A stretch of DNA of 64,000 nt, from the NCBI GenBank assembly GCA_947652325.1, contig CANTCQ010000005.1, forward strand, positions 4,727-68,726, given 5' to 3'. The position numbers and the translations under genes are program-made. The first letter of the stretch is position 1, and each line of letters begins with the position of its first letter. This document shows positions 14,475-37,345 of this stretch, in pieces. A model generated the notes under the pieces. That model worked only from the letters and a program-made list of their open reading frames with translations. It searched no databases and was not told the DNA's origin. Source of the stretch: an uncultured Mycoplasmatota bacterium (GTDB lineage: Bacteria; Bacillota_I; Bacilli_A; RF39; UBA660).

Positions 14475-14483
14475 TTTTTCTCC

Positions 14484-16583: not shown

Positions 16584-16605
16584 AAAATCACCTACTTCTT
16601 AAGTG

Positions 16606-18390: not shown

Positions 18391-18950
18391 TCTGGCATCA
18401 CCGTTCCTAATGTTGTTGGCTGTCCCCCATTAAAGAAATTATCAATAAGCATACGTAAATCATTATTTGATACTTGTGTCGCATTTAAACTACAACTTGC
18501 TAAATTGCTAATTAAATTATGAATTCGTTTTTGAACGATTTCAAGTTTCTTTTCTTTAAATAAAATAAAGTATTCTGTATCTACTACACTGTACTCAGCA
18601 CTCATAAACATATTGGCTTTATTAATATCTTGCATAATTAATTTTCGTATGGCAGAACTTGTTGAATTGTTATATAAGATTTGTAATTGTGATAAATAGG
18701 CATTGATATCTACAGGCCTATCTGCCACAATCAACCAAAATTCATAATCAATTGTATTGTAAAAATTTCTTAAATTATAAATAACATTGTCTTGTGTGTC
18801 TTTATCTAAAATAAATATATTTTTAGGGGCAACTTTTACTCCTGTCACATATTCTCCTGAATCAAGTTGTATCATCCCATTCATAATTTGTTTGATTGGA
18901 ACCCAATCTTCTGTATACTTACTTACAACATTTTTTTTCTTATTTGCCAT
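18387..18950 (-). CDS. VirB4 N-terminal-domain-like protein (separate ORF)
   Basis: EDWVPIKQIMNGMIQLDSGEYVTGVKVAPKNIF resembles the N-termini of Gram-positive VirB4 proteins. Its TGA overlaps the ATG of the ATPase ORF (ATGA). Confidence 0.55.
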   Translation of the reverse strand: MANKKKNVVSKYTEDWVPIKQIMNGMIQLDSGEYVTGVKVAPKNIFILDKDTQDNVIYNLRNFYNTIDYEFWLIVADRPVDINAYLSQLQILYNNSTSSAIRKLIMQDINKANMFMSAEYSVVDTEYFILFKEKKLEIVQKRIHNLISNLASCSLNATQVSNNDLRMLIDNFFNGGQPTTLGTVMPE

Positions 18951-19251
18951 CTCTTATACACCAGCCCTTCCAATAAAATCTTTTTCTTTTAATAAAAAAT
19001 AATATTATATTTGTTAATAATTGTAACACGTTATGATAATTTGGAACTGGCAGTACTAAGAATGCAGAAAGTAATGCTGGTGATAATATTAGTAGTAATG
19101 ACCCTATTTCTACTTTGTTATTAAATATAAATAACAATGTTAATGTAATAGTACAGCCTATTCCAAAAATAATTAAATCAATAGGGGTAAAAAAACCTAA
19201 AATCATCATTGATTTTTTGGAATTGGCTGGTATTAAATAATTTTGATTCAT
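18940..19251 (-). CDS. VirB3-like small membrane protein (PrgI/TcpE type)
   Basis: 103 aa with two TM helices. N-terminal YLIPANSKKSMMILGF and C-terminal KRKRFYWKGW follow the PrgI/TcpE pattern. It lies immediately upstream of VirB4. Confidence 0.6.
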   Translation of the reverse strand: MNQNYLIPANSKKSMMILGFFTPIDLIIFGIGCTITLTLLFIFNNKVEIGSLLLILSPALLSAFLVLPVPNYHNVLQLLTNIILFFIKRKRFYWKGWCIRDGK

Positions 19252-19317
19252 CCCTTTTTATCCTCCTTTTTTCTCTTCAAAAATTCAAAAAATATTCAAA
19301 TAATTTACTTAATTTTT

Positions 19318-20499
19318 CTATTTTTTATTTTCTTGTTCTTTTAAAATTTTAGCATTCAATTCTGTACGCAATTTTCTATTTGCATTTTCAATAGCGTCAT
19401 TTCCATCAAACAATTTACTTACATTGCCACTTGTAATGAAATCATTGATTTTTTGTGATGCAGCAGCATTTGCAATCTCTAAATTATTCATAGCATCATT
19501 TACTTTAGTATTACTTCTGTCAACATTTCGTAAAATGCTATTATAATTCAATGATAATTTAGTTCTATATGTAGTAATTGCACTCATTAAATCTCCATCA
19601 TATTTAGTCATTTCTAATGTTCCATCATCACTTATTCCAGCAACAATATCTTTTTGTAGTTGTTTTTCTAAATCAACTTTTGCTTGTTGCAATTTACGAA
19701 GTGTTTCAGCATCTATTCTATATCTACCATCCATGGTTTTACCATGCTGTTGTGCATAGGCAATCTCATTTTCTATATCTGCTAAATTATCATAATATTG
19801 ACCCCAAGCGGTTGTTACTCCAGATGTAGCAGTACGTTTTGCTTTTTGCTTTTCCATAATTGCTTTAGCTCTATCAGCAACGGCTTTACGCGCGTCAGCT
19901 ATTTCTTGTGCTCTTGCTTGTTCAGCTTTTATTTGTTCTCCAGAAGATATTCCTGCCCAACTAGCCAAAGCCTTTAGTGTATCATTAACATGACCTTGCA
20001 TCGCTCCTGGTATTCCTCCATGCGTAGCTCGATAGTTTTCTCTTTTATCACGTGCTGTTGTGGCTGCTTGTGCTGCTTGTCCTGCAGCGGTACGCATATC
20101 TTTAAAATTTTTAGCAGAAAAACCACTTTTTATGCTTCTAATTCCTCCACTTACACCACCAGCTGGTATACTTACTATTCCTCCTGTACCATGAAAAGCA
20201 GTTGAAACTAAAGCTCCTCCAAATGTTTTTATTTTATTACCAAATCCCTGTGCATTTCTAAATCGGTTCCAACTCGCAGCTGACTTTCCAAGTCCATGCG
20301 TTAAATTTCGGATAGCTGCAGTTGTAGCACCTCCTAAAACAGCAGCAGCTCCAAAGGCTCCTCCTGCTGCTAATTTTCCACCAATTCCTAATTTCATATT
20401 ACTGGAGTCAATTCCTATAACATCCCCAATAAGTTTTGGAGCTTGTTTAGCAAAAGCAAAAAGTCCCATAACTACTATCACCTTTTCAAAGCCATTCAT
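19318..20499 (-). CDS. Gly/Ala-rich plus coiled-coil protein, possibly a detached TrbL/VirB6 C-terminal region
   Basis: The ATG at 20499 follows a GAAGGTGA RBS, and the track's longer N-terminus overlaps the upstream gene. Gly/Ala-rich first half, coiled-coil second half. Confidence 0.6.
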   Translation of the reverse strand: MNGFEKVIVVMGLFAFAKQAPKLIGDVIGIDSSNMKLGIGGKLAAGGAFGAAAVLGGATTAAIRNLTHGLGKSAASWNRFRNAQGFGNKIKTFGGALVSTAFHGTGGIVSIPAGGVSGGIRSIKSGFSAKNFKDMRTAAGQAAQAATTARDKRENYRATHGGIPGAMQGHVNDTLKALASWAGISSGEQIKAEQARAQEIADARKAVADRAKAIMEKQKAKRTATSGVTTAWGQYYDNLADIENEIAYAQQHGKTMDGRYRIDAETLRKLQQAKVDLEKQLQKDIVAGISDDGTLEMTKYDGDLMSAITTYRTKLSLNYNSILRNVDRSNTKVNDAMNNLEIANAAASQKINDFITSGNVSKLFDGNDAIENANRKLRTELNAKILKEQENKK

Positions 20500-20522
20500 A
20501 TAATCACCTTCTTTTTTTAAAA

Positions 20523-21398
20523 TTAAAATATTGCTTGTGCAAGAAATACCACACCAAACATTACAAACAAACGAATAAATACTTCCATATAAGTTGCAAT
20601 GGTTGCTTTTATCCAATTATCAAAAACCGATTTCTTTTCGGGTATAATAAACATTAAAATTGGTATAGGCGCAATTATTTGGTAAAATGCAAGTTTGGCC
20701 ACACGAATTCCTAAATCAATGCAAAATGATATTAAAACATATATTAAAAATAAACCACAAGCTGTTGCAACTAAAGGAGTGTATTTAACTCCATTTTCTC
20801 CTTCTTTTACTTCTTCTATCATAATTGTAATATCAGTAAAACTTCCATTTCTCATAATTGCCTCTCGAATACCATTCTCACCACTCCAATTTACTCCATC
20901 TTTACTCTGAGTTCCTTCTGGTATCACTAAAAAAACTTCTAAAATATTCAAAGCTGTTTCATAACCAATTTTATCAACAGAAGGAGTATCTCCTTTGCTT
21001 CCAAATAACAATTTTTCTATAACATGCTCTGATATTATTAAATTTTGCAATTTAAAGGCATAATCAAATATGACAGGTACTATTCCTAATAGCACTATAG
21101 ATATTATACAGTTTTTGACTATTTTCCCAGCACCTTTATTTATATTGTCAGGATCTACAATCGCTTTTAACAACGCACTGGCTACAAAAAAAAGCATAAC
21201 AACTCCAATAACAACTTCTACTCTATCAGCAATTTCTTTATATAAATGTTGTTGTATTAATTCTTCACTTGCGAGGAAAGTAAAACTATTAAATAGTTGA
21301 GCAATTACCCAATAAACAATACTATCAATAAAAAGAAAAACACCTGTTAAACCAAAATCAAATACATTAAAAATTTTAGCGTCTATTAATGTTATCAT
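20523..21398 (-). CDS. polytopic membrane protein, TrbL/VirB6-like
   Basis: 291 aa with 5-6 predicted TM helices and a central external loop. Its position between pilin-like genes and VirB3/VirB4 fits a VirB6 analogue. Confidence 0.5.
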   Translation of the reverse strand: MITLIDAKIFNVFDFGLTGVFLFIDSIVYWVIAQLFNSFTFLASEELIQQHLYKEIADRVEVVIGVVMLFFVASALLKAIVDPDNINKGAGKIVKNCIISIVLLGIVPVIFDYAFKLQNLIISEHVIEKLLFGSKGDTPSVDKIGYETALNILEVFLVIPEGTQSKDGVNWSGENGIREAIMRNGSFTDITIMIEEVKEGENGVKYTPLVATACGLFLIYVLISFCIDLGIRVAKLAFYQIIAPIPILMFIIPEKKSVFDNWIKATIATYMEVFIRLFVMFGVVFLAQAIF

Positions 21399-21413
21399 TT
21401 TTGAATACTCCTT

Positions 21414-22448
21414 CTATTTAATATTACAAGTTCCAAATTCAATTCCAGCCATGTGTAATAAAAACTCTATTATTGTTGGCAAAACAAATACCAAAACTCC
21501 TATTATTAATCTTTTTAACAACTTATTAGTTGCTTTTTTTATTTCTGATTCATCATGTGCTGATATAGATTTTATAAAATCTACAATCGATAAAGCAATA
21601 ATTAAAATGGGAACAGCAAATTTTATTAATTTCCAAATTTCTTTTAAAAAGTCTCCAAAAGGTCCTTGAAATATTCCATTACAATCTAAAGGACCAGTTT
21701 CTATTTCGACTGGTGGAAGTGGAGTATATGGTTCATCCCCTTCTATTCCGTTTATTCCCGAGTAATTATTGTCAATATTACCACCAGAGTCTAAAATTTC
21801 ACATTCAAGTCTGCCACCTCTAAATTCAGTACATTGATAATATATATAAGTAGGACATTTAATAGTTGCTGTTCCATTATAAAAATGTGCTCCACTACTA
21901 TTTGATAATTTACAAAGTGGTTTTGAAGAATCTGATATACATAAAAATGCTGGCCTATAAGTACGTCCATCTTCTGATTTGACTTTAAAAGTAATTTTAT
22001 CTGAATTATAAATACCTTCATATGTACAACTTGTATCAGAATGTTCTACTAAAACTACTTGAGGCATTCCAATTATATTTCCCGAAGATAATTGCTCCGT
22101 TAATAAAGTCCCCTCTGTTTCACTGCATTCTCCTACTCTTGGCACATTTCCTATGCATTCTCTAAAAGAACTATATATTTTATTTCCTTCTATAGACCCA
22201 TGATAAAAAGAAATAATTGGACAAGAATTTTCTTGTTCTGCTTTTATTTCTTCTCCTTCAGCTATAGAAATATCAATATTTGCTATTATTTTATCAAAAA
22301 AATTTGCATTATCTTTTTTTTCTAAAATAATGGTTTCTCCATTCCAATTATAAGAGCATCTAGTTGATGCTTCTACATCTTGATAAAGAAAAAACAAAAA
22401 AAATAAAGTTAAACTAAATAATATGTATATCTTCTTTTTCATAAACAT
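21414..22448 (-). CDS. secreted Cys-rich protein with C-terminal VirB2/TrbC-like two-helix module
   Basis: Signal peptide, about 14 Cys in the ectodomain, and a C-terminal FAVPILIIALSIVDFIKSISAHDESEIKKATNKLLKRLIIGVLVFVLPTIIEF shared with two paralogues. Confidence 0.65.
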   Translation of the reverse strand: MFMKKKIYILFSLTLFFLFFLYQDVEASTRCSYNWNGETIILEKKDNANFFDKIIANIDISIAEGEEIKAEQENSCPIISFYHGSIEGNKIYSSFRECIGNVPRVGECSETEGTLLTEQLSSGNIIGMPQVVLVEHSDTSCTYEGIYNSDKITFKVKSEDGRTYRPAFLCISDSSKPLCKLSNSSGAHFYNGTATIKCPTYIYYQCTEFRGGRLECEILDSGGNIDNNYSGINGIEGDEPYTPLPPVEIETGPLDCNGIFQGPFGDFLKEIWKLIKFAVPILIIALSIVDFIKSISAHDESEIKKATNKLLKRLIIGVLVFVLPTIIEFLLHMAGIEFGTCNIK

Positions 22449-22521
22449 CCCTTCTTTTTTTGTTTTCTTTTATTATAACATTAATTTACTTTTTATGTAT
22501 AAATTAAAAAAGTAAACATAT

Positions 22522-23652
22522 TTAATCACAATTTCTAATATCTAATACGCAAATCCGACAATTCTTAAATGCATTTTCATCATTACCTGCTATTTTAAAT
22601 ACATAATTTATAATTGTGGGTAATAAAAAAATAACTATTCCTATAATAATTCTAATAATTAATATTTTAGAAGTTTTTTGAATGGCATCTTGATTTGAAG
22701 AAACGATAGCTTTTCCAAAATCAATTGAACCAAATATTATAAGTAAAATTGGAACCATAATTTTAACTATGTATAGCCCATATCCTAAAAATTTTACAGT
22801 CTTGTGTACGCCTTCTTCGTTACAAAAATTATTAAAGTCTATATTCGTATCTAAATTCAAATTGGTATCTGCATCTTGGGCTGCATTCTTTATAAATTCA
22901 TTTGCCTTGTTCACAGCTTCTCTATATTCTTCTATTACTATGCTTTTTCCACTAAAATAACCTTGATTTATATAATTATCAACTCTAGTATTCCAAACGG
23001 AAGTTGCTGAAGAGATCTTGTTTTTTAATTCTGCAATCATCTTTTGACACTTTTCTGCTCCAACAGCTTTACATTCATCCATTTTAAAATTATTTACTAA
23101 ATCATTTAATCCTCGGGTATAAGACTGTATTTCCTCTATAACTTCTTCTACATCCGAATTTGGATTAGTACTTGTATTATTTTTATTTTGTAGTTCTTGT
23201 TCAACCTTCTTTATATATTCATTTGCCTTATTAGCAGCTTCTTTATAGCTGTTGATTACAATATTTTGACCTGTAAAGTATCCTCGATTTACAGCATCAT
23301 TTACTTTTGCATCCCAACTGAATATTCTATCTTTTAATGTTTGAACTAAATTTTGACATTGTGTTATATCTGCATCTTCTAGTTTTGTACACCTATCTAA
23401 TGGAAAACTATTTATAGCATCATTTATTCCTCTAGTATATGATTTTATTTCTTCTTCTATTTCTTTCTGCTTTTCTTCTAATGTTTGTGCTATTTTTATG
23501 ACTGGCGCTTTTTTTACGTTCTCTTTATTTAAATTAATTATTATAGCTTTTTTATTATTTATTTCATAATTATTTTTTAATGTTATGTCTTTTGCGTTTA
23601 CAAAACTTATGCTTACTAAAAATACTATTATTGAAAATATTACCTTTTTCAT
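22522..23652 (-). CDS. secreted protein with internal duplication and C-terminal VirB2/TrbC-like two-helix module
   Basis: Signal peptide, two ~90-aa repeats, and a C-terminal IMVPILLIIFGSIDFGKAIVSSNQDAIQKTSKILIIRIIIGIVIFLLPTIINY. Confidence 0.65.
   Translation of the reverse strand: MKKVIFSIIVFLVSISFVNAKDITLKNNYEINNKKAIIINLNKENVKKAPVIKIAQTLEEKQKEIEEEIKSYTRGINDAINSFPLDRCTKLEDADITQCQNLVQTLKDRIFSWDAKVNDAVNRGYFTGQNIVINSYKEAANKANEYIKKVEQELQNKNNTSTNPNSDVEEVIEEIQSYTRGLNDLVNNFKMDECKAVGAEKCQKMIAELKNKISSATSVWNTRVDNYINQGYFSGKSIVIEEYREAVNKANEFIKNAAQDADTNLNLDTNIDFNNFCNEEGVHKTVKFLGYGLYIVKIMVPILLIIFGSIDFGKAIVSSNQDAIQKTSKILIIRIIIGIVIFLLPTIINYVFKIAGNDENAFKNCRICVLDIRNCD
22876..23463 (-). repeat. intragenic tandem duplication (protein level, two ~90-aa units)
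   Basis: Unit 1: IKSYTRGINDAINSFPLDRCTKL...NRGYFTGQNIVINSYKEAANKANEYIK. Unit 2: IQSYTRGLNDLVNNFKMDECKAV...NQGYFSGKSIVIEEYREAVNKANEFIK. Confidence 0.75.
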
Positions 23653-23700
23653 AAAATCACGTCCATTTTTTTATATATTTATTATAACAGTAAAATTCTA

Positions 23701-23731
23701 AAATAAAAAGGTAAAATGTTTTATTTTACCT
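23701..23731 (-). terminator. rho-independent terminator overlapping the stop of the 376-aa gene
   Basis: On the minus strand: AGGTAAAAT-loop-ATTTTACCT followed by TTTTTATTTT. The stop codon lies in the left arm. Confidence 0.55.
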
Positions 23732-24856
23732 CACAATATAAGGGTCTTCTTTTGTTCCTACTCCACTTTTATATAAAACATCACTACTTAATGCTATGAC
23801 ATACCTCAAAATTGAATTTCCGGAAGTATATTCTGAATATACTTCTCCACTGTAAGAAACAGAGTAAGCAGAATACGTATCTTTCATATCTGCAGTCATT
23901 GTCCACCACTTATAATCATTGTCTGTTAAATAATTATAATTTTGGCATTCTCTACTTAAAGAAGTACTACATAAAGCATCCAAACTAGCATTCATAAAAT
24001 CATATATTGGTAATAGACCTATGTCTTGGTCTTTTATTATTTCATTACATTCTAAACTTCCATCTCGGTTTGTACTTGCTTCTCCTCTTTTACCAATACA
24101 TAAATCAAATTTTGATAAATATTCTTTGTTTTCTAAATATTTTTTTTGGAATAAATCTTTTGTAGTAATTAGTGCTCTACTTAAAGCGTAATTGTTTATT
24201 CCATAATTTGATTCCATCTCGGAATTATATCTATCATCCCAAGTTCCATAAATATTATCATCTTCTGTTTCTGTTAAAATTATATGAATATTGTTATTTC
24301 TGTCAATCTTTACTATTCTCCAAAGTTCATTTGCAAAAGATATATAATTATTGGGATTCTGGCCTCTAAAAACAAGCTCATTATTCATTTCATAAAGTCC
24401 TTCTCCTACTTGAGATATTTTATTATTATTTTTAATTGTATCCATAAACTTTTCTGTATGAAAGTTATTACAAGTTAAATATGCTTGATATTTATAATCA
24501 TTTTCTATAACATAATCTACTAAAATATCGGCTGTACATGAAGAATCTTTTACATATTTTTTTAAATCTTTTATATATTTATTTTCTATTAAAGTATTTG
24601 TACTTACTGCAATTGTTGGATTAGTACTCGTAGGTCTTATATCTGGATTTTCCTCTAAATACTTTACAGTTGCTTGCTCTAAAATTTCTTCCAATTTTTC
24701 ATAACTCATATTTGTTCCTACAAATTTTACGGCAATTGCTATAACAATAATAATAATCAGCATAATCAAAGCTGCACTTCCAAAAAAATTTACTTTTTGT
24801 TTGTTGTTATTATAAAAAGATTTTAATTTTTCTATTTGTTCTTTCATTTGTTTCAC
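23726..24856 (-). CDS. membrane-anchored extracellular protein, unknown function
   Basis: One TM helix near residue 30. The C-terminal KWWTMTAD...LRYVIALSSDVLYKSGVGTKEDPYIV pattern is common in clostridial surface proteins. Confidence 0.55.
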   Translation of the reverse strand: MKQMKEQIEKLKSFYNNNKQKVNFFGSAALIMLIIIIVIAIAVKFVGTNMSYEKLEEILEQATVKYLEENPDIRPTSTNPTIAVSTNTLIENKYIKDLKKYVKDSSCTADILVDYVIENDYKYQAYLTCNNFHTEKFMDTIKNNNKISQVGEGLYEMNNELVFRGQNPNNYISFANELWRIVKIDRNNNIHIILTETEDDNIYGTWDDRYNSEMESNYGINNYALSRALITTKDLFQKKYLENKEYLSKFDLCIGKRGEASTNRDGSLECNEIIKDQDIGLLPIYDFMNASLDALCSTSLSRECQNYNYLTDNDYKWWTMTADMKDTYSAYSVSYSGEVYSEYTSGNSILRYVIALSSDVLYKSGVGTKEDPYIVR

Positions 24857-24883
24857 CTATGTTGTTATGATACCATAGCCATT

Positions 24884-24906
24884 AAAAAAAAGCAATTTAC
24901 ATTGCT
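24884..24906 (-). terminator. short hairpin plus T8 directly after the 131-aa pilin-like gene
   Basis: On the minus strand: AGCAAT-GTAA-ATTGCT followed by TTTTTTTT, starting right after the TAG stop. Confidence 0.5.
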
Positions 24907-25302
24907 CTATTTCCATGCATTACTGGCTTTTGACTTACACGTATTTCCGTTTGGACTTGTAATACAATCTTTACAAACATTAAAGTCAGCTTGTGCATTG
25001 TTTGTAAAATCTGTTATTATAGTCATTATAAAACCAATTATGGTTGGGAGTAAAAATATAAAAACGGATGCAATGGCTCTTTTCACTAAAGCAGTAGTTG
25101 CTTTTTTTATTTCATCATCTTTACTAGCTATTACTGCTTTACCTAAGTCAATCATCCCAAAAATAATTAATAAAACTGGAATAGCAATTTTAAAAATTAA
25201 TAAAATATACCCGATTATTTGCCAAAGATTTGCTGTTCCATTACAAAACCCATTAGCTGTACCTATACCTGGCTCTCCGGTCATTGTTAAAAATAAATCC
25301 AT
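24907..25302 (-). CDS. VirB2/TrbC-like two-helix pilin candidate
   Basis: 131 aa. The core IAIPVLLIIFGMIDLGKAVIASKDDEIKKATTALVKRAIASVFIFLLPTIIGF is two hydrophobic helices joined by a short charged loop. Confidence 0.55.
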   Translation of the reverse strand: MDLFLTMTGEPGIGTANGFCNGTANLWQIIGYILLIFKIAIPVLLIIFGMIDLGKAVIASKDDEIKKATTALVKRAIASVFIFLLPTIIGFIMTIITDFTNNAQADFNVCKDCITSPNGNTCKSKASNAWK

Positions 25303-25332
25303 ATTTGTAAACCTCCTTGTTTCTATAATACT

Positions 25333-25361
25333 ATTTTATCTGTTTAATTCTATAATGTCAA
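25333..25361 (-). promoter_or_regulatory. internal sigma-A-type promoter upstream of the 131-aa pilin-like gene
   Basis: On the minus strand: TTGACA (25356-25361), 17 nt, TAAAAT (25333-25338), then an AAGGAGG RBS. Confidence 0.55.
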
Positions 25362-25364
25362 GTT

Positions 25365-26360
25365 TTACGATTTAAATATGTTAAATAGTTTACTATTTTT
25401 TTGCTCTTCTCCTGAATTTTCATCAAAACGAGCAAATCCCAAGTTGATTAAGAATTCTTCTATTTCTTTGTGATGGTCTAATTTGTCATCTAAATACGGC
25501 ATATTAAAGAAGACTTTACTTTTACTCTCATACTCAAAATCTTTAACATCTCTTCCATTTAATATACTTCTATTTAATACAATTTTTTTGTCTTTTAATT
25601 TTTCAAATGTTCGTTTGTCTTTACGAATCAGCTTATTAAGTTTAATAAGTCCTGGTTCTATTAAATAGATAACTTCGGTACATGCACTAATACTTCCTCT
25701 ATCGTTTAAATCAACCAATATGACTTCTACATCACTATTAGTGGCAATAAAAGCTGGCAAGTCTAAACTTGATGTTGTTCTTAAAGTTTTATCATTAAAA
25801 TAAATGAAATCATGTTCATCTACTTCAACTGCCATAACATTGTATTTGCGCGCTAGTTGTTTTTTTAGTAAATAGGTAAGTGTTGTAGAACCAGCGTGAT
25901 TGGTTACATTTTTAATGCCAATAACACGTAGTCCTAATTTGTCGTAATCCCCTCCACCAGAATCTTCTGTTTCTGCAGCATTTAATTGATGGTATTGTGC
26001 TACATCTTTATAAGTATTTGGATTATTAATTAAAAATTTTACAGCATCAATATTTCGCGTAAAATTATAAATTCCCATCGAAATTAAGCTAGATAAAAAT
26101 TTGGGTGAATTTACTACTTCTGAATCATCTAATAAGATAATAATATTACTTACATCCATACTTACCGATAAGTTTTGTAAAGTTGCTATATCTTGATAGT
26201 TTTGTAATGCTGTAATATCCAAAATCATTTTGTTGTAATAAAAGTTAGTAAATTGATTCACTAAATCCTCTACTTCAAACTCTCCATTAATGCTTTTTAT
26301 GATATCTATATCAAGTGTAGCAAGTAGTGATTGATATTTATTTGATACGATTACGTTCAT
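25365..26360 (-). CDS. CpaE/TadZ-like ParA/MinD-fold protein with degenerate Walker A
   Basis: N-terminal receiver-like region, then VIGIKNVTNHAGSTTLTYLLKKQLARKYNVMAVEVD aligned to the ParA pattern (xKGGxGKTT...DxD). Both Lys residues are missing. Confidence 0.55.
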   Translation of the reverse strand: MNVIVSNKYQSLLATLDIDIIKSINGEFEVEDLVNQFTNFYYNKMILDITALQNYQDIATLQNLSVSMDVSNIIILLDDSEVVNSPKFLSSLISMGIYNFTRNIDAVKFLINNPNTYKDVAQYHQLNAAETEDSGGGDYDKLGLRVIGIKNVTNHAGSTTLTYLLKKQLARKYNVMAVEVDEHDFIYFNDKTLRTTSSLDLPAFIATNSDVEVILVDLNDRGSISACTEVIYLIEPGLIKLNKLIRKDKRTFEKLKDKKIVLNRSILNGRDVKDFEYESKSKVFFNMPYLDDKLDHHKEIEEFLINLGFARFDENSGEEQKNSKLFNIFKS

Positions 26361-26363
26361 AAT

Positions 26364-26852
26364 TTATTCCTCCCTTGCGATTAAATTATCTGCGGGATTT
26401 ACAATATCCCCAGTCGCCCCATTTATATCAAAGGTAAATATGTCTCCTAAAACAGGTAAATTAAAATAGAAAAACATATTTACTTTATAAAAAACTTTTC
26501 CTTCATGATTACTTGAAGGGGAAGCTATTTTTCTTATACAATAATAATATTTTTTACGATTATTCGTGACAAGTTCTATTGTATTATTATCTAAATCTGC
26601 TACTCCATAAGAATCAACTTCGCAGGTTTTCATAATGTTATAACGATTTGTTTTTAGATAATTATTGATAATTCCTAGTGTTCCATCATTTCCGGTTGTT
26701 ATGCCTTCTCTTTTTTCAATAATCGACAACATTTCATTTTTTACTTTAAATGCTTTGGTGTAATTTAAAGAAAGGGCTAAAAATGCCACAAATATAAGCA
26801 TAAAGATAATCACAAGTTGTGTTATCCAAGTACCACCAATAGCTTCTCTCAT
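26364..26852 (-). CDS. minor pilin-like protein (paralogue 2)
   Basis: MREAIGGTWITQLVIIFMLIFVAFLALS N-terminus, a ~130-aa globular part with a Cys pair, and a 4-nt overlap with its paralogue. Confidence 0.55.
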   Translation of the reverse strand: MREAIGGTWITQLVIIFMLIFVAFLALSLNYTKAFKVKNEMLSIIEKREGITTGNDGTLGIINNYLKTNRYNIMKTCEVDSYGVADLDNNTIELVTNNRKKYYYCIRKIASPSSNHEGKVFYKVNMFFYFNLPVLGDIFTFDINGATGDIVNPADNLIAREE

Positions 26853-27325
26853 CTTTGCATCACCCCACTATTTTTCGAGTGACTTAAAATTTTTGTATCC
26901 CCCGAAATTTTAAAGTTAAAGACACTTCTAAATATAGGTAAATCCAGTTGATAAAATACAACTACACGATAATAACTCATATCTGGTAATTCTGCATTGT
27001 TTCTAGTGGCTTGTTTAGCTATACAAAATGCGGCATTACGACTATCAAGTTGCCCTTCTCTATTAAAACCACTATATCCTTCTGGACATCTTCCAGTTGT
27101 TCTATAAGATGCTTTTTTTAAATAATCGACAATTTTTAAAATAGCAGGGTCATTTTCGGGACTCGCCAAATCTGCTCCTTCTTCTCTTTCAATTGCTTTG
27201 ATAATTGTATTTTTTACATTAAATGCCTTGGACTGGTTAATTGATAAGCACATATATCCTGTAAATAGTAGGACAAAAAAGATTACGATTTGAAATATCC
27301 AAGTACCACCGATTGCCTCTCTCAC
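26849..27325 (-). CDS. minor pilin-like protein (paralogue 1)
   Basis: MREAIGGTWIFQIVIFFVLLFTGYMCLS N-terminus and a globular part with a Cys pair. Confidence 0.55.
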   Translation of the reverse strand: MREAIGGTWIFQIVIFFVLLFTGYMCLSINQSKAFNVKNTIIKAIEREEGADLASPENDPAILKIVDYLKKASYRTTGRCPEGYSGFNREGQLDSRNAAFCIAKQATRNNAELPDMSYYRVVVFYQLDLPIFRSVFNFKISGDTKILSHSKNSGVMQR

Positions 27326-27338
27326 TCTATCACCTCAA

Positions 27339-27578
27339 TTAGCCTTTCCAAGCACATTTAAAGTCTGGTCCTTCTTGATGTCCGTTTTTATAATATTTGC
27401 AATCAACCATTCCATCTTGAAGTGTATTTTTATCACATATAGCATCACTACATTTGTTGTTTGCAATAAACGTATTTTTAATGCTTGGCCATAGAATAGC
27501 AAAGAAAAAGACCGATAGGATTGCTACCGCTATAACGATTACAACTGTCATATTTAGTTCTCCTGTCGCCTCTTTCAT
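27339..27578 (-). CDS. small Cys-rich pilin candidate (paralogue 2)
   Basis: 79 aa: MKEATGELNMTVVIVIAVAILSVFFFAILWPSIK, then a 45-aa tail with 4 Cys. Confidence 0.6.
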   Translation of the reverse strand: MKEATGELNMTVVIVIAVAILSVFFFAILWPSIKNTFIANNKCSDAICDKNTLQDGMVDCKYYKNGHQEGPDFKCAWKG

Positions 27579-27601
27579 AGTTTTAAACTCCTATTCTAAA
27601 A

Positions 27602-27853
27602 TTATCTAGTTACTGTTCCATTACCCGTATTTGGACAAGTAATTGTATCTGTTGAACCATCATCTTTAATGTATGTACATGTACATGTATCCGTTGTACA
27701 AGTACTTGGACAAGTTGCGTTTGCGCAAAGTGTATTTCTATTAATACTGCTTTTTATACCTGGCCATACAAATGCATAAAAGAATGCAGCGACGGCAGCA
27801 ATAGCAACAACAGTTACAACGGTCATATTTAATTCTCCAGTTGCTTCTTTCAT
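27602..27853 (-). CDS. small Cys-rich pilin candidate (paralogue 1, probable major subunit)
   Basis: 83 aa: MKEATGELNMTVVTVVAIAAVAAFFYAFVWPGIK, then a tail with 6 Cys. It has its own near-consensus promoter and an AGAGGAGG RBS. Confidence 0.6.
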   Translation of the reverse strand: MKEATGELNMTVVTVVAIAAVAAFFYAFVWPGIKSSINRNTLCANATCPSTCTTDTCTCTYIKDDGSTDTITCPNTGNGTVTR

Positions 27854-27881: not shown

Positions 27882-27910
27882 ATTATAGCTTTTTTTCTTT
27901 AATATATCAA
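27882..27910 (-). promoter_or_regulatory. near-consensus sigma-A promoter in front of the pilin genes
   Basis: On the minus strand: TTGATA (27905-27910), 17 nt, TATAAT (27882-27887). Confidence 0.6.
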
Positions 27911-27926
27911 TATTTATTCCTGTTTC

Positions 27927-28715
27927 TTACAGTCCCATTAACATTAATACTGCAAATATTAAAAGAACCATAACTCCTAAACCTGTCGTAATTAACATAC
28001 TCATGGTTTTAGATTCCATTTTTTCAAGTCTTTCCTTATATCTTGTATCTCTAGCTTTTTGTTGCAAATTGGAAATGGTTTTCGAAAATGCAAGCAATTG
28101 GTCTTGTTTATGTTCTTGTCTTCCTAAACTCAAACGATATAGCAAACGCATCATCCGCATAGAATCTCTTACAGGGTATTCTCTTGCAAAATTTACATAA
28201 GGGTCTATTTTATCATTACCTGCATTGATTTCATTGATTAACTCTTGCAAACCTTCTCTAAATATAGGAGGTGCATCCGTAATAGATTTTCCAATTGCAA
28301 CAGGTACGGTATAATGTTGAATTAAGATTTCTAAACTTTTTAAATAGTGTGGTAACATCGAATTAATTTCATGTAAATGAGCTTTATAATATTTTTTAAT
28401 ATTGAAATAATCCAATTTAAATACTAAAAATCCTCCTAAAAAACAGAATAAAATGGTTACATAGTTTAGCTTTGAAATAAAACAAAATACTAACACCACA
28501 ATCATAATTAATCCATTTCGAATTCTTTTATTAAATAGGATATCTGCATTAACCCCTTCTCCATATTTTGCTCTTACATAAAAGTCCCAATCCTCTTCCT
28601 TTAATTTACGAAAATAAACTTCATTATCCGCAATAAAACGATTGGCGCTGATTCTTCCTGTGTAGTTCATAACATAAAGAATAATAATCCCAATAATTAA
28701 TATTTCAATTGCCAT
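27927..28715 (-). CDS. TadC-like type II secretion system F-family platform protein
   Basis: N-terminal TM helices, a cytoplasmic helical domain (LPHYLKSLEILIQHYTVPVAIGKS...) and a C-terminal TM, paired with a second F-family gene. Confidence 0.65.
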   Translation of the reverse strand: MAIEILIIGIIILYVMNYTGRISANRFIADNEVYFRKLKEEDWDFYVRAKYGEGVNADILFNKRIRNGLIMIVVLVFCFISKLNYVTILFCFLGGFLVFKLDYFNIKKYYKAHLHEINSMLPHYLKSLEILIQHYTVPVAIGKSITDAPPIFREGLQELINEINAGNDKIDPYVNFAREYPVRDSMRMMRLLYRLSLGRQEHKQDQLLAFSKTISNLQQKARDTRYKERLEKMESKTMSMLITTGLGVMVLLIFAVLMLMGL

Positions 28716-28716
28716 G

Positions 28717-29610
28717 TTATTCTACCCCCACATCTGCATTATAGTATTTCTCTCCACTTAATAAGAAATAACTATTAATGATAATAATCATATGAAGAAT
28801 AATTTTTACATACCAAACCTCTAAAAGTTCAATATAACTGTCCGTTCCGAGTAAAAATTGCATTGCCATCACAAGTAAAAACAGGGCAAGACCAAATGTA
28901 ATAAATCTTTTATGGAAATTTTTACGGTCGGCTTGGTCACGATAAACACCTTCTACTAAAGCATCAATATCTTGGCTCATATTTTCCAAAGCTTCTCCTG
29001 AATCCTTTGCTCCTTCTTTTGTGATTTGTAAAAAAAGTTGGTTCATATTTTTTACCATATAAAACGGATATTTTTCATTAAAGAATTCAATAGATTCGTC
29101 AATGGTTCCATTTTGATAAGACATTTCAATCATAGTTTTTACATCTTGCAAAACTGGGTCTTCTAAAATACCAGAATCTCTTACTCCTTCAAGACTTTTA
29201 ACAAAACTTTGTGTCGTTGTAAATTCCATAATGACATTGGTTGTATAAATTTGAATTTGTTCAAATATGAATTCACTGTATATTTTTTGATAGCGTAAAT
29301 ATGCAAGATAAGGAATAAAGGCAACAGCGATTAAAGCATAAATAATGGCTATAACAATATTATAGAAATAAAGATAAGAAATCCCTCCTGCAATACCTGC
29401 AAACATCACAATTTGACTTGTGTATTGTCTTACCGTAAATTCTTGCCCTAAGGATTTTACTTTTTCTCTTACTTCCTTATAACTGTAGGGTGCAAATTTT
29501 TCGTATGTGTCACGCACTTGCGTAATAAAGAAACGATATACATTTTCACCATTGTTTTGCCTGTAAGAAATAACATATATTCCTATGATACATAAAATTA
29601 TTAATTCCAT
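28717..29610 (-). CDS. TadB-like type II secretion system F-family platform protein
   Basis: Same topology as its neighbour. The ATG at 29610 follows an AGGTG RBS. Confidence 0.65.
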   Translation of the reverse strand: MELIILCIIGIYVISYRQNNGENVYRFFITQVRDTYEKFAPYSYKEVREKVKSLGQEFTVRQYTSQIVMFAGIAGGISYLYFYNIVIAIIYALIAVAFIPYLAYLRYQKIYSEFIFEQIQIYTTNVIMEFTTTQSFVKSLEGVRDSGILEDPVLQDVKTMIEMSYQNGTIDESIEFFNEKYPFYMVKNMNQLFLQITKEGAKDSGEALENMSQDIDALVEGVYRDQADRKNFHKRFITFGLALFLLVMAMQFLLGTDSYIELLEVWYVKIILHMIIIINSYFLLSGEKYYNADVGVE

Positions 29611-29630
29611 GTATAGCACCTACTTTCTTC

Positions 29631-32468: not shown

Positions 32469-35258
32469 CTACTTCCAAGCAGGACCAATACTAGAACCTA
32501 TTGCACCTGTCCACAAAGTCCAATTCGGATTTCGTTTTACTTCAGTGAAAAATCCTCTCGCTTGTCCTTCATCTAAGAATTTACTTGTACCATAAGCATT
32601 GGTTATATTATTTTGTGAATGATATGTTAAATCCTCTCTAACATATGTACCTGTTTCTTTGTTATAATCGCGAAGTTTTTTCATATTATTTGCATCCAAT
32701 ACATACGTATATTCTGCTTCTATATATATATTCTCACCTGTTGATTCTATTTCATTTCGAGTAAATTCACCTTTTTCACTAGTCCAGTTAGCTCCTAAAG
32801 TACGATTATTTGGATTAAATTCATTTCCAATTTTTCGATATACATATGTATCTTCTCCATTAAATATACAATTAATACAATATACATCACATTCTGGACA
32901 TTTTGGTTCAGGAGGAGTGTAATCACAATATTCTCCTACACATTCATAATCACATTCTGGACAATCTACTACATAAACGCAAACGTATTCTGTATCCACT
33001 CCTGTGGTTGCACCTATGGCATTGACAACTGTATCTAGACGTCCATTTCGACATCCTACATAATCATTGTATTGTCCTAAATTAGTGAAATTCAATTTCC
33101 ACTTGTAAACACCTGTTGGTGTATTCAAAGCAACCGGGAATACAGCACCTAAATAACTATAATTTTCTCTTATATTTTCTGGATTTGATACCGTATCAAT
33201 CGTACCATGTGGATAATTTGTTTGAAACTCTTGTTTATTAGCGTACTCGGCGGTTCCTTCTACTTCAATTTTACGATAATATAGATGGCTATTTAAAGTT
33301 GATATTTCTTCTGCTAGTGTTGCTTCATTGGTATTATTACATCCGTTTGCATCACAATATAAATAATTAACATTCTCTAAACCACCACTTGTATTCGTAG
33401 TATATTCATTATCAAGTGTTTTATTAGTACTATAAGTTGCGTTCTCACCTGTTATTGTTCCACCACCTGCAACTAATTCATAATTAATATTTGTACTATA
33501 TTGTTCTTGATAATCGAAATTAACAATTGCATCCAAACAAAGATTATTCACCCAATGATAACACTCATTCATATAAGCAATTGTTTGTTTTAAATCATTT
33601 AAAGCATTTGTTAAATTTTCTTTGGCTGTAGACACTTTTCCATCCCAATTTGGCTCTTCTATTGTTGATGGGTTAGCACTACATCCAGTATGTCTAACTC
33701 CATTTTCATAATAAGTAAATGATGTTTTATTAGCTTTTGTTCCCCATTCGTATTGGTCAGTATCTCTTTGTATTGGTCTTTGAATGCATTTTCCAGTATT
33801 ATTATCGCAGTCCAAAGTATATCCAGTATAATTTGATGATTTTAATTTATACATTGTATATGTATTATCATTGCAATCTGTTGTATCTGTTGTATCGTAT
33901 TCATTTGCCTCTCTTTGCGCTTTTTCCTTTTCTGCTTTTTTATATAAATTATAAGCATTTACTAAAGCTTCTTGCTTTGTTTTTACATCTTGTATAAAAT
34001 TTTCAATTAAAATTTGTGCTTCTTCTGAGTTTTTATTTGGATTTGTAGCATAACATGTTTTTTTAGCTTTTATTACTGTATTTTCTAATTCAAAATATCT
34101 TCCACTATCTGTATATTTGGCACCTGGCATAGTCATTTCATAATCTTCTTTACAATAAACTGTACAATATGGATTCTCTTGGCTTATTTGTCCGTCTAAC
34201 ATTTGATAGGTATTACCAGCTTCATCTTTATTGTTTAAAATACAACATTTAATATCTGTTGGTGCTTTTATTGACATATATTGACTATTTGGACTATCAC
34301 AATAGTTAGGTTTACTAATTGTTGTTTGTTGTTCACATTCACATAAATTTTCATTTGGTTCTTCATCACAATACGTTTTGTAATAATTACCACCAGTATT
34401 AGGTTCAATTACATCGCTAAATGTTTGTACAACTCTTCCACCAGAAATACTACTTGAATTATTTATACTATTTGATGAATTTGAAGTGTTTGTATTGATA
34501 TCTGTTATATAATAAGTATTTTGAATATTTTGTCCCGAACACTGTACTACTTTTTTTGGAATTCTTTGTGAATCACCATTTGGTGTACTACCATTTCCAT
34601 TATATATAGCATTGATTGTAAATTCGCAATCTCCTGGAATTGCAGATACAGTTATAGTTCCTGAGTAACCATTCCAATTTTGATTTGTTACTGTACATCC
34701 TGAACTGCAGGTAAACTCTACACTTTCTATAAAAGAGGACGCATGCACATTATATGTGACATTGGCTTCACTAGCACTTATTCTAAAAAATGACAAAGAA
34801 GAACTTGTATTTCCAGCATAAACTTGTGCTTCAGCAATTAAAGCATTTACTCTATTGGCAGCATTTCCTGAAACCGTAAGTCCTCCTGTATGATAACGCA
34901 ATGCCGCTGTTTTTTCTGCTTGTGTATAATTGGAACTTAAAATATATTCTATTGTCGCATCAGCAATTTCTTGGCATGTGAATGAATCTCCTCTCCAAGC
35001 TCCTCCTAAATGTTTATTTAAATCTCCACAATATGCATCATAATTTTTTCCGTCAACATTCATTGTTATACCATAATCTGAATGACATTGTCCCTCAACA
35101 GGATTTCCATTGGCATCTATTCCTGTATATTGAATATCACAATTTTGTGTACCATCTGTTGTTACTCCACCAGTTCCTGAAGCAGCAAAAACTTCTTCTG
35201 TACTTAAGTTTATTATTGTCAAACAAATTATAAACAAATATTTTATATTTTTAATCAT
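32469..35258 (-). CDS. 929-aa secreted Cys-rich protein (candidate adhesin or tip protein)
   Basis: Signal peptide ending VFA-AS. Many Cys, including CPECDYECVGEYCDYTPPEPKCPECDVYCINC. No wall-sorting or TM anchor. Confidence 0.6.
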   Translation of the reverse strand: MIKNIKYLFIICLTIINLSTEEVFAASGTGGVTTDGTQNCDIQYTGIDANGNPVEGQCHSDYGITMNVDGKNYDAYCGDLNKHLGGAWRGDSFTCQEIADATIEYILSSNYTQAEKTAALRYHTGGLTVSGNAANRVNALIAEAQVYAGNTSSSLSFFRISASEANVTYNVHASSFIESVEFTCSSGCTVTNQNWNGYSGTITVSAIPGDCEFTINAIYNGNGSTPNGDSQRIPKKVVQCSGQNIQNTYYITDINTNTSNSSNSINNSSSISGGRVVQTFSDVIEPNTGGNYYKTYCDEEPNENLCECEQQTTISKPNYCDSPNSQYMSIKAPTDIKCCILNNKDEAGNTYQMLDGQISQENPYCTVYCKEDYEMTMPGAKYTDSGRYFELENTVIKAKKTCYATNPNKNSEEAQILIENFIQDVKTKQEALVNAYNLYKKAEKEKAQREANEYDTTDTTDCNDNTYTMYKLKSSNYTGYTLDCDNNTGKCIQRPIQRDTDQYEWGTKANKTSFTYYENGVRHTGCSANPSTIEEPNWDGKVSTAKENLTNALNDLKQTIAYMNECYHWVNNLCLDAIVNFDYQEQYSTNINYELVAGGGTITGENATYSTNKTLDNEYTTNTSGGLENVNYLYCDANGCNNTNEATLAEEISTLNSHLYYRKIEVEGTAEYANKQEFQTNYPHGTIDTVSNPENIRENYSYLGAVFPVALNTPTGVYKWKLNFTNLGQYNDYVGCRNGRLDTVVNAIGATTGVDTEYVCVYVVDCPECDYECVGEYCDYTPPEPKCPECDVYCINCIFNGEDTYVYRKIGNEFNPNNRTLGANWTSEKGEFTRNEIESTGENIYIEAEYTYVLDANNMKKLRDYNKETGTYVREDLTYHSQNNITNAYGTSKFLDEGQARGFFTEVKRNPNWTLWTGAIGSSIGPAWK

Positions 35259-36013
35259 AATACTCTACTCCTTTTCTTTTTAATAAGAATCACAGTAGTA
35301 GCAACCCCCGAAATCAATACTACACTACCCACTAAATTGATAATTATAGCATTTTCTTGATATATTTTCTTTATTTTATTCCAGAAATTCTTATTTTCAA
35401 TTTCCTCTTCTTTTCTTTTTTCTTCTTTTTCTATTTTATAATCTTTCAATTTTGTTCTAAATTCATTTATAGATATATTTTCTACAGATAGATATTCTTG
35501 GCAATAATAGAATTCAGGGTTTTCTTTACAATCTCGCCATTCTGAAAACAAATTATATATTGGTGTTGTAAGAGAAATTTTACGAAATAATTCTCCTATG
35601 CAAGCTCCTTTATTAGAATAAATCTCCACTGTATAGGTAATTAATTGGTTTACATTTCTCGTTTGAAAGGAAGCAACTCCATCTTTTGTATCTTCATATT
35701 TAAATGTTACAACATTATTATCTATACTATTTTTTATTTGGACATATATATCTTCTGTTATATTTAGCACAGTAATATTAAAGCCTTTTATGTAATAATC
35801 TACTTCTGGAATCTTTCCATCAGCTCCTGGGTTATCAATATCCAAAACTTTCCCATCATAAATATCAACAGTTTCATAATTTGCTTTTACATTAGCAACT
35901 ATATTATTTATTTCTGCTTGTTCACTATAACTGCATGCACTTTCTGCTTGCACTATATTTGGAGTCAAAAATACAATCGCTAGTAAAAACAATTTTTGCA
36001 AATTTGTTTTCAT
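35255..36013 (-). CDS. first gene of the locus: secreted protein with C-terminal TM anchor
   Basis: Signal peptide (..NIVQA-ES), C-terminal hydrophobic helix plus a KKKRSRVL tail, and a 4-nt overlap with the next gene. Confidence 0.55.
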   Translation of the reverse strand: MKTNLQKLFLLAIVFLTPNIVQAESACSYSEQAEINNIVANVKANYETVDIYDGKVLDIDNPGADGKIPEVDYYIKGFNITVLNITEDIYVQIKNSIDNNVVTFKYEDTKDGVASFQTRNVNQLITYTVEIYSNKGACIGELFRKISLTTPIYNLFSEWRDCKENPEFYYCQEYLSVENISINEFRTKLKDYKIEKEEKRKEEEIENKNFWNKIKKIYQENAIIINLVGSVVLISGVATTVILIKKKRSRVL

Positions 36014-36161: not shown

Positions 36162-36614
36162 ATGAAAAATAAAAATAGGAATATTTACCTTTATAGTCTT
36201 ATCATTATTGTTATTTTATTAGGTGCTTTTTTAATTTATAAACTTGCATTTGCTCAAAAAAATACAGGTACGAGATTACTAAATATCCAAGTTTCTGAAT
36301 TAGAAGAAAAAATAAATGCTCAAGAAAACTTTGTTTTGGTAATTAGCCAAACTGGGTGTAGTCATTGCGAACAATATTTGCCAGAGCTTGATAGAGCTTT
36401 ACAAGAAGTGAATTTTAATGCCTATGTATTAAATATAACGGGACTTGATAAAACAAATTCTGATACACTTGCCAAATACGTGAATTTTTCAGGAACTCCC
36501 ACAACCATATTTTTTCATGAAGGAATAGAAAAAACGACATTAAATCGTATTGTTGGGTATGCTTCTAAAACAAAGATTATAGAAAGACTTAAATCATTGG
36601 GGTATGTTGATTAG
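36162..36614 (+). CDS. membrane-anchored thioredoxin-fold thiol-disulfide oxidoreductase
   Basis: N-terminal TM helix and a CxxC active site in ISQTGCSHCEQYLPEL. The size is typical of a thioredoxin fold. Confidence 0.75.
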   Translation: MKNKNRNIYLYSLIIIVILLGAFLIYKLAFAQKNTGTRLLNIQVSELEEKINAQENFVLVISQTGCSHCEQYLPELDRALQEVNFNAYVLNITGLDKTNSDTLAKYVNFSGTPTTIFFHEGIEKTTLNRIVGYASKTKIIERLKSLGYVD

Positions 36615-37338: not shown

Positions 37339-37345
37339 GTGTTTT

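Follow-up and report, generated by a model that had tools for sequence, protein, structure and literature searches.

The closest described relative of the system considered here is the Tad/Flp (type IVc) pilus, and distant tad-like loci without recognizable prepilins have been noted before (Imam et al. 2011; PMC3244431). Here, we describe a 12-gene operon on the minus strand (36013-25365) of a 64,000-nucleotide stretch of DNA, called the window throughout, from an uncultured Mycoplasmatota bacterium (assembly GCA_947652325.1, contig CANTCQ010000005.1, positions 4,727 to 68,726). The window has a G+C content of about 28%, and the operon lies in a long minus-strand gene array. In order, the operon encodes two candidate adhesins, a DUF5411 protein, a CpaB-like protein, an ATPase, two platform-like proteins, four pilin-like proteins, and a cytoplasmic protein of 331 amino acids (aa). 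We lean, with modest confidence, toward reading the operon as encoding a filament machine that belongs to the type IV filament family and is Tad-like (type IVc-like) but highly divergent. That reading is the best explanation because the operon corresponds to Tad gene for gene, save for a peptidase, and because its small proteins are conserved in the manner of pilins.

Comparison with Tad/Flp reveals similarities of content and differences of sequence. As in Tad systems, there is a CpaB-like protein, a CpaF-type ATPase, two single-domain platform-like proteins, two Flp-sized and two TadE/F-sized proteins that share an N-terminal signal, and a ParA-like protein, such that the single gap in the correspondence is the peptidase TadV. 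In contrast to Tad systems, the leader is 6 residues long rather than 15 to 30, the small pilin-like proteins have a Cys-rich head that Flp lacks, and DUF5411 is an additional component. Moreover, the proteins did not match the Flp, TadE, or T2SSF models of Pfam and have no detectable similarity to canonical Tad proteins of the same lineage.

Comparable gene blocks are found on plasmids of Gram-positive bacteria. A Priestia koreensis plasmid (NZ_CP061869; L087, 163726-169505) encodes, in order, an adhesin, DUF5411, SAF/RcpC, ParA-like, CpaF/VirB11, T2SS-F, hypothetical, and DUF4320 proteins, and both of its platform proteins were matched by profiles of the window platform proteins. The "VirB11" block of the pLS20 family (genes 34-41) has the same order, with an adhesin, a small anchored protein, the "VirB11" ATPase, two polytopic membrane proteins, and further small anchored proteins, but its profile similarity was marginal; the comparable pLS20 genes are listed as unknown (PMC8557374). 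An analogous block on a Paraclostridium bifermentans plasmid (L001) contains an adhesin, DUF5411, a CpaB-like protein, CpaF/VirB11, and two membrane proteins. The small anchored proteins of the Bacillota plasmids are annotated as hypothetical and have very short leaders that end in Gly (MSIPKMG, MSEG, MRG, and ...RASWG, the last in a 47-aa protein). The pilin-like protein of the Priestia plasmid is DUF4320, however, and is not detectably homologous to the pilin-like proteins of the window. Megablast of the operon against plasmids found no match, and literature searches on DUF5411, DUF4320, and Tad-like pili in monoderm conjugation yielded no account of this system. According to a 2025 review, Gram-positive secretion systems lack VirB11 (PMC12857230).

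Two further systems bear comparison. In IncI plasmids (R64 and TP114), a thin type IVb pilus encoded beside a conjugative secretion system aids mating-pair formation (PMC9045228; PMC12857230). The thin pilus, however, is Gram negative, is built from the canonical prepilins PilS and PilV, has its own peptidase, PilU, and shows no sequence relationship to the window. Archaeal type IV pilins (PF07790) resemble the proteins described here in having a short leader, a small residue at -1, and no requirement for Glu at +5. Here, in contrast, position -2 is not basic, the sequences come from bacteria, and the rest of the proteins is unrelated.

Pilin-like proteins with a common N-terminal signal

The original prediction held that four consecutive genes and a fifth, more distant gene encode proteins that start with the same pattern, and the open reading frames (ORFs), starts, and coordinates proved correct, with all four consecutive ORFs on the minus strand between 26364 and 27853 (Table 1). 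A six-frame scan of the window for M[KR][ED][AST]x(1-2)G followed by a hydrophobic 20-mer returned exactly those five ORFs, all in one operon, and the same scan of 100 codon shuffles returned none. Thus, the shared motif is not due to chance. Each of the five ORFs opens at the first start codon after a stop, preceded by a Shine-Dalgarno sequence, and therefore a longer leader from an upstream start is excluded. Across 85 related loci and at least 1,349 representative clusters of the larger protein (counted at 50% identity, E≤1e-3), the motif hardly changes.

Table 1. Features of the operon and its surroundings, in window coordinates
Feature	Position	Strand	Remarks
Small pilin-like protein A, 83 aa	27602-27853	-	starts MKEATGELNMTVVTVV; 6 Cys
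Small pilin-like protein B, 79 aa	27339-27578	-	starts MKEATGELNMTVVIVI; 4 Cys; paralog of A
Larger pilin-like protein 1, 158 aa	26849-27325	-	starts MREAIGGTWIFQIVI (MREAIGGTW); 3 Cys
Larger pilin-like protein 2, 162 aa	26364-26852	-	starts MREAIGGTWITQLVI; 2 Cys; paralog of protein 1
DUF5411 protein, 256 aa	31682-32452	-	start codon TTG; begins MKETYWGYWLIML; N terminus of MKETYWG/YWLIML type
331-aa cytoplasmic protein	25365-26360	-	weakly ParA/MinD-like; degenerate P-loop
Sigma-70-like promoter, TTGATA-17-TATAAT (11/12)	27882-27910	-	gap preceding small pilin-like protein A
TadC-like polytopic protein, 262 aa, 4 predicted transmembrane segments	27927-28715	-	hhalign to Priestia plasmid gene
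TadB-like polytopic protein, 300 aa, 4 predicted transmembrane segments	28717-29619	-	divergent T2SS-F/GspF-type platform, by transitive link
Secretion ATPase, CpaF/TadA-VirB11-FlaI group, 383 aa	29631-30782	-	PF00437, 92.6 bits
CpaB/RcpC-like protein with N-terminal anchor, 282 aa	30817-31665	-	subthreshold RcpC and TIGR03177 matches
Two Sec-signal proteins at operon head, 252 aa (C-terminal transmembrane segment) and 929 aa (Cys rich)	32469-36013	-	candidate adhesins/tip proteins
Type IV secretion (conjugation-type) cluster	10986-25302	-	directly downstream of pilin-like operon
Membrane-anchored thioredoxin and CPBP/Rce1-type intramembrane protease	36162-37338	+	divergent neighbors; belonging to system uncertain

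The N-terminal signal has the properties of a class III (prepilin) signal, as a leader that ends in a small residue is followed by about 20 hydrophobic residues. Position 6 is Gly in all 245 unique small homologs; representatives of the larger family have Gly, Ser, or Ala there and vary at position 7. Restriction at position 6 with variation at position 7 is the pattern that would be expected of the -1/+1 residues of a prepilin cleavage site. The prediction of a prepilin-like N terminus common to the five proteins was thereby supported, and the operon that encodes them has Tad-type content. The leader had also been called unusually short, which was an overstatement: six residues is a normal length for type IVa and Com pilins and is unusual for Flp only. 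A bacteriocin-like double-glycine leader was rejected, as GG occurs only in the larger proteins, the leader is too short, and the operon context is that of a secretion ATPase.

Conservation of the small proteins resembles that of pilins. Proteins A and B are 41% identical, and A consists of the leader MKEATG, the residues ELN, a 20-residue hydrophobic helix that ends in W30-P31, and a variable, Cys-rich C-terminal part. As predicted, A and B are identical over their first 13 residues yet differ at five synonymous sites within the first 13 codons. Thus, N-terminal identity is maintained at the level of protein, and recent gene conversion was rejected as its source in light of the synonymous differences and conservation across species. 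The small-protein family comprises 1,912 clusters with no Pfam annotation. Among the 245 unique homologs, M1, E3, G6, E7, and P31 never vary, 240 have their first Cys at position 43, and 243 have an even number of Cys residues (4, 6, or 8). The even numbers foreseen for the locus itself also held, with one extracytoplasmic pair in each of the larger proteins. On average, pairs of small proteins are 73.5% identical over residues 1 to 36 and 27% identical over the Cys-rich remainder. As judged by sequence, a conserved core helix that carries a variable exposed head would be the classic major-pilin pattern, and we consider protein A a candidate major subunit.

The small proteins matched no known pilin family above threshold. 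The sole pilin family that they matched recurrently was Pilin_N (PF07790), the N terminus of archaeal type IV pilins; of 34 small proteins, 14 matched it weakly (best, E=0.01; protein B, E=0.028), all below the 25.2-bit cutoff. Pfam and NCBIfam models returned nothing significant for the four proteins encoded between 26364 and 27853. Comparison with pilin models, as the original prediction had proposed, therefore gave subthreshold archaeal matches and no match to Flp or TadE.

The larger proteins are candidate minor pilins. Larger proteins 1 and 2 are 35% identical, and the family of the 158-aa protein, with 352 word-index matches, has no annotation. One of the Cys residues of the 158-aa protein is in the transmembrane helix, and the other two form a C80/C101 pair that is invariant. 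An AlphaFold (AF2) model of the protein, with a predicted local distance difference test (pLDDT) score of 80, has helices at residues 5 to 47 and 60 to 72 and four strands. The model suggests a pilin-like "lollipop" in which a 43-residue N-terminal helix precedes an alpha/beta domain, and the protein is similar in size to TadE/F. Members of the larger family (P0402, P0405, and P0407, each of about 510 aa, and P0469, P0497, and P0479) carry C-terminal extracellular modules, identified by eye from motifs as either SH3b plus a VanY/M15-like cell wall hydrolase or Listeria-Bacteroides-type repeats. The fusions fix the topology of the larger proteins as C-out and, by analogy, may recall modular minor pilins. 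Finally, residues 1 to 131 of the fifth protein match DUF5411 (PF17424; 186.9 bits versus a cutoff of 30), a family without known function, and that protein is a candidate for a further minor pilin.

Components of a probable Tad-like machine

The remaining proteins of the operon point to Tad to various degrees. The closest relative of the ATPase in the PDB is CpaF (1.8e-16), with VirB11 and archaeal GspE/FlaI close behind. NCBIfam places the ATPase between the VirB11 and TadA models with scores that are about equal. The ATPase is thus assigned to the hexameric ATPases of the TadA/CpaF type, with VirB11 nearly equal. By tblastn, it matched the plasmid blocks of Gram-positive bacteria (E=6e-48), and its nearest plasmid relatives are annotated CpaF/VirB11 and are encoded on conjugative plasmids of Gram-positive bacteria. 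The CpaB/RcpC-like protein scored 25.2 bits on PF16976, for which the cutoff is 28.8, and 30.9 bits on TIGR03177 (E=1.5e-7), for which the cutoff is 71.

Identification of the platform proteins is more tenuous. The 300-aa protein belongs to a family of at least 7,996 clusters that have no annotation. When a platform protein was compared to plasmids by tblastn, the single match was a "type II secretion system F family protein" of the P. koreensis plasmid. By hhalign, the 300-aa family matched that protein (probability, 93.8%; E=1.7e-7) and the 262-aa family matched the product of the gene that follows it (96.8%; E=2.7e-10). The Priestia T2SS-F protein itself scores 24.2 bits on the Pfam T2SSF model, for which the cutoff is 25.2. 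The TadB-like and TadC-like proteins did not align significantly with one another by hhalign. An AlphaFold model of the 300-aa protein had a pLDDT score of 50 with a shallow alignment and was not used.

The 331-aa protein is a constant companion of the pilin-like proteins. Its similarity to the CbiA/ParA (ParA/MinD) proteins is weak, and profile searches of the PDB with its family found no relative. The gene was present in 84 of 85 loci that encode the larger pilin-like proteins and was directly downstream wherever mapped. By position and architecture, we infer that the 331-aa protein is TadZ-like.

How the 331-aa protein relates to the pilin-like proteins could be explained differently. Perhaps the proteins are bitopic and neither cleaved nor polymerized, and invariant cytoplasmic N termini of 6 to 9 residues dock on the 331-aa protein, as PilN does on PilM, to make an assembly or alignment subcomplex in the service of a Tad-like machine or a type IV secretion system. 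PilM-PilN-PilO likewise combines a cytoplasmic protein with two bitopic paralogs whose short N termini in the cytoplasm are conserved, and the larger proteins are paralogs like PilN and PilO. Moreover, nowhere are the larger proteins better conserved than in the N-terminal peptide (73%), which is common to three otherwise unrelated families, and the leader residues E3 and A4 are conserved far beyond what is usual for prepilins. Docking also fits a trio of small, larger, and 331-aa proteins that is invariant whatever other machinery is present, that has its own promoter, and for which no peptidase was found. In the small proteins, however, the transmembrane helix is near-invariant and the exposed part is hypervariable and Cys rich, which better fits a surface-exposed subunit that polymerizes than an anchor in the membrane, and modular C-terminal fusions are typical of minor pilins. 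In addition, no sequence match to PilM-PilN-PilO was seen, Foldseek found no PilN, PilO, or GspM fold, and the 331-aa protein is weakly ParA-like whereas PilM is actin-like. We consider docking without cleavage unlikely.

Cassette architectures and the secretion cluster

The pilin-like genes are part of a smaller unit that recurs in different surroundings. A scan of genomes found 80 loci, all of which, save a few labels, were from metagenome-assembled genomes of uncultured gut "Bacilli," "Tenericutes," or "Mycoplasma sp.," including Candidatus Caccenecus, and the animals sampled were rabbit, mouse, human, goat, and chicken. The context of each locus was viewed within 10 kb of flank. The first architecture, in about 40 loci, is the full operon with or without a downstream secretion system. 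The second, in at least 16 loci (L062, L063, L066, L068, L071-L076, L078-L082, L084, and L085), is one small pilin gene, one larger gene, and the 331-aa gene located between VirB2-like genes of secretion-system operons that are closely related. The third, in about 12 loci, is two small genes, two larger genes, and the 331-aa gene alone in the chromosome, where the cassette adjoins the same CPBP/phosphoesterase neighbors as in the window and where, twice, a canonical Tad locus is 3 to 5 kb away. What the three architectures share, and thus the invariant unit, is a cassette that encodes a small pilin, a larger protein, and the 331-aa protein. As the complete 12-gene operon was also found without a secretion system, the full operon is a self-contained unit as well.

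The cassette appears to be transcribed on its own. Of 72 distinct loci drawn from all architectures, 67 have a TTGNNN-16 to 18 nt-TANNNT element, in most cases TTGATA-17-TATAAT, at the position of the window promoter. The promoter-like element, together with an AAGGAGG ribosome-binding site, lies about 55 to 65 nt before the first small pilin gene, and we conclude that the cassette is its own transcription unit.

In the window, the operon adjoins a secretion cluster of the conjugation type. The cluster contains VirB2-like T4SS_pilin genes, a VirB6-like gene, a VirB4 of the Mbov_0397 type, an M23 hydrolase, and a coupling protein of the CD1115 family. The VirB4, of the kind found in Mycoplasma integrative and conjugative elements (ICE), is split over three ORFs (18940-19251, 18387-18950, and 16606-18390). 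No relaxase or integrase was seen beside the cluster, the flanks of which encode RmuC, DedA, and UppP. In two loci of the second architecture that were examined, VirB4 was 79% (L062) and 76% (L076) identical to that of the window.

Perhaps the cassette supplies pilin-like subunits or accessories to the type IV secretion system itself, such that they are assembled or used by VirB4 and the VirB6-like protein and the CpaF-like module is an optional, VirB11-like accessory. The loci of the second architecture favor that idea, as the cassette is there among VirB2-like genes with no Tad-like ATPase or platform nearby, and so do the near-equal scores of the ATPase on VirB11 and TadA and the CpaF/VirB11 annotation of its plasmid relatives. 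Both the full operon and the bare cassette, however, are also found where no secretion system is encoded within 10 kb, and the secretion cluster already has VirB2-like pilin genes of its own. Moreover, the NCBIfam models for Mycoplasma ICE components do not match the trio, and as only 10 kb of flank was viewed, a Tad module may be farther off or elsewhere in the genome. We think a role as parts of the secretion system very unlikely.

Alternatively, the cassette, with its own promoter, might be a portable filament-subunit module of a new class that plugs into either a Tad-like ATPase/platform or a VirB4-type secretion system. Its invariant M-K/R-E-A-x-G leader would be read by a dedicated partner, which might be the 331-aa protein or a protease not of the A24 family, such as the syntenic CPBP enzyme. 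We regard a portable module as rather unlikely, but if it were true, conjugation-type machines of monoderms would gain a pilus that they are thought to lack.

We note a number of further observations on the secretion cluster and the loci. In the window, several genes (24907-25302, 22522-23652, 21414-22448, and 20523-21398) contain a VirB2-like T4SS_pilin (PF18895) segment with weak matches, and related loci have two to six VirB2-like genes each. Monoderm systems are said to lack VirB2. Arrays of VirB2 have been reported for Patescibacteria, and the VirB2-like genes of the window resemble them (PMC12102498). A 179-aa ORF on the plus strand (24836-25375), antisense to the 131-aa VirB2-like gene, encodes a hydrophobic, low-complexity sequence and is probably not a gene. 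Finally, a few loci are labeled Muribaculaceae, Clostridia, or Ruminococcus, probably as a result of misbinning; contigs labeled "uncultured Muribaculaceae" (L011, L032, L059, L064, L065, L068, and L080-L082) have a low-G+C, Bacilli-type locus.

A number of results weigh against a Tad-like filament, in addition to the conservation of the leader residues described above. Glu or Asp at +5 is absent: in the small proteins, Glu is found at +1 but Thr occupies +5, and the larger proteins have Phe or Gln at +5. The small proteins have neither the G/xxxxEY motif of Flp nor a match to the Flp model (PF04964), and the pilin-like proteins did not match the Flp, TadE, or N_methyl models of Pfam and NCBIfam, such that the predicted absence of Flp and type IVa motifs was borne out. 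None of 28 larger-family members matched the TadE/TadF model (PF07811), and hhalign of the larger family with the canonical TadE of a locus from the same lineage (L056) gave a probability of 0.3%. Profile searches of the PDB with the small and larger families were empty, and Foldseek of the 158-aa model against the PDB found nothing at E<0.3 and no pilin. The platform proteins did not match T2SSF (PF00482) directly in Pfam or NCBIfam, membership in T2SS-F would rest solely on the transitive link through Priestia, and hhalign with the canonical TadB, TadC, and TadE of L056 found nothing. The second architecture lacks an ATPase, platform, CpaB-like, or DUF5411 gene within 10 kb, and the third lacks a Tad-like ATPase or platform within the same distance. 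Separately, hhalign with the CpaE of L056 and with the ParA-like and DUF4320 proteins of Priestia also found nothing. In sum, the pilin interpretation of the original prediction stands on the shared N terminus and the Tad-type context, and homology to a pilin family, by sequence or by fold, did not emerge.

How the Tad-like filament might work can be proposed. The five M-[KR]-E-[AST]-x-G proteins would be prepilins inserted with the N terminus in and the C terminus out, and a prepilin peptidase encoded elsewhere in the genome would cut behind the small residue, which is residue 6 (residue 7 in DUF5411). The CpaF-like ATPase, acting on the TadB/TadC-like platforms, would extract the prepilins from the membrane and polymerize them. 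The two 80-aa proteins would be the major subunits, with an invariant helix and a hypervariable, disulfide-stabilized head, and their invariant Glu at +1 may do the work that Glu at +5 usually does. Minor or tip pilins would be supplied by the two 160-aa proteins and DUF5411, the 331-aa protein would be a TadZ-like scaffold, and the Cys-rich secreted proteins would be displayed as adhesins. The filament would probably bring cells together for DNA transfer or adhesion, like the IncI thin pilus, because the operon adjoins a conjugation-type secretion system. The analysis shows the motif, its conservation, the gene content, and fusions compatible with the topology. Filament formation is an inference, given that some cassettes have no type IV filament ATPase or platform, and so are cleavage after residue 6, polymerization, and the service of cell contact to the secretion system.

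If the proteins are indeed pilins, a large and unannotated branch of type IV filaments exists in uncultured gut Bacilli with reduced genomes, with about 1,900 small-pilin clusters, at least 1,349 larger-protein clusters, and at least 8,000 platform clusters. The prepilin signal would break the Glu+5 rule, and PilFind and Pfam would miss it. Reviews hold that conjugation systems of monoderms have neither VirB11 nor pili, and the link to a type IV secretion system of the Mycoplasma ICE type and the likeness to the "VirB11" block of pLS20 would suggest that monoderm conjugation may use a Tad-like filament for contact. Finally, as these gut commensals are abundant, their hypervariable, disulfide-stabilized heads would be of note as candidate adhesins or surface antigens.

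Prepilin peptidase, divergent neighbors, and Cys-rich proteins

A filament of prepilins would call for a peptidase, and the original prediction was correct that none of the TadV/PilD type can be identified in the window. No membrane protein of the window had the G-x-G-D-x-K motif of A24 peptidases, and no polytopic ORF matched Peptidase_A24 of Pfam. Moreover, when unannotated polytopic ORFs from 86 fetched loci (~1.3 Mb) were grouped into 16 clusters, no cluster of plausible genes was A24, which again counts against a Tad-like filament. Absence of A24 is weak evidence, however, because canonical prepilins on related contigs are also without a nearby peptidase, and for that reason the lack of a peptidase in the locus is not anomalous. 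Canonical type IV prepilins (KKG/FTLVELL) were found in L014 (7394-7837) and L035 (13010-14971), one of them 653 aa long. Canonical Tad loci were found in L056 (14818-19668) and L057 (~16550-19000), with Flp (KRG/QALVEY), TadE (KKG/QALVEF), TadF, CpaE, CpaF, TadB, and TadC. These canonical genes share contigs with the noncanonical cassette, and therefore it is plausible that the hosts encode a prepilin peptidase elsewhere in the genome. In some Tad systems, such as that of Bifidobacterium breve, the peptidase gene is separate from the pilus genes.

Divergently upstream of the operon, on the plus strand (36162-38239), are genes for a membrane thioredoxin (CSHC), a CPBP/Rce1-type protease, and a phosphoesterase. 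Perhaps the proteins are prepilins after all, but the adjacent CPBP glutamic protease (Rce1/MroQ type) removes the leader and the membrane thioredoxin forms the disulfides. The CPBP gene is divergently upstream of the operon start in 24 loci (including L004, L007, L009, L010, L026, L030, and L045-L061), mostly at 0.1 to 0.6 kb, with an extra gene intervening in four of the 24 (~3 kb) and with CPBP identity of 34% to 66%. In 10 loci of the first architecture, all of which carry Cys-rich adhesins, the thioredoxin is between the CPBP gene and the operon. Moreover, no A24 peptidase was found nearby, and the best NCBIfam match of the CPBP protein, although far below the cutoff, is MroQ, a protease that processes leaders. 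The CPBP gene is nonetheless accompanied by the phosphoesterase and other housekeeping neighbors, and we take the adjacency to reflect conserved synteny of the chromosome, not a link in function. The CPBP gene was missing in all 18 loci that have the secretion system but no Tad module and for which there was upstream coverage, as it was at other sites, such as that of L002. Bacillota commonly have CPBP genes, and no CPBP enzyme is known to process prepilins. Thus, we retain CPBP as a dedicated peptidase only as a highly improbable rival, and a host prepilin peptidase remains the version of the Tad-like filament that we prefer.

Other Cys-rich proteins are encoded around the operon. The 929-aa secreted protein (32469-35258) contains dozens of Cys residues, with CxC and CPEC runs near the C terminus, and its homologs head the operon in 35 loci. 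Neither it nor the 252-aa Sec-signal protein matched Pfam. The thioredoxin gave weak, subthreshold matches to NCBIfam models, the best of which was a disulfide isomerase of the PedC/BrcD type. Finally, just past the phosphoesterase, a gene on the minus strand (38280-38720) encodes a very Cys-rich protein of unknown function that is 146 aa long (MCNNNNKEKDTNCIAEIL...).

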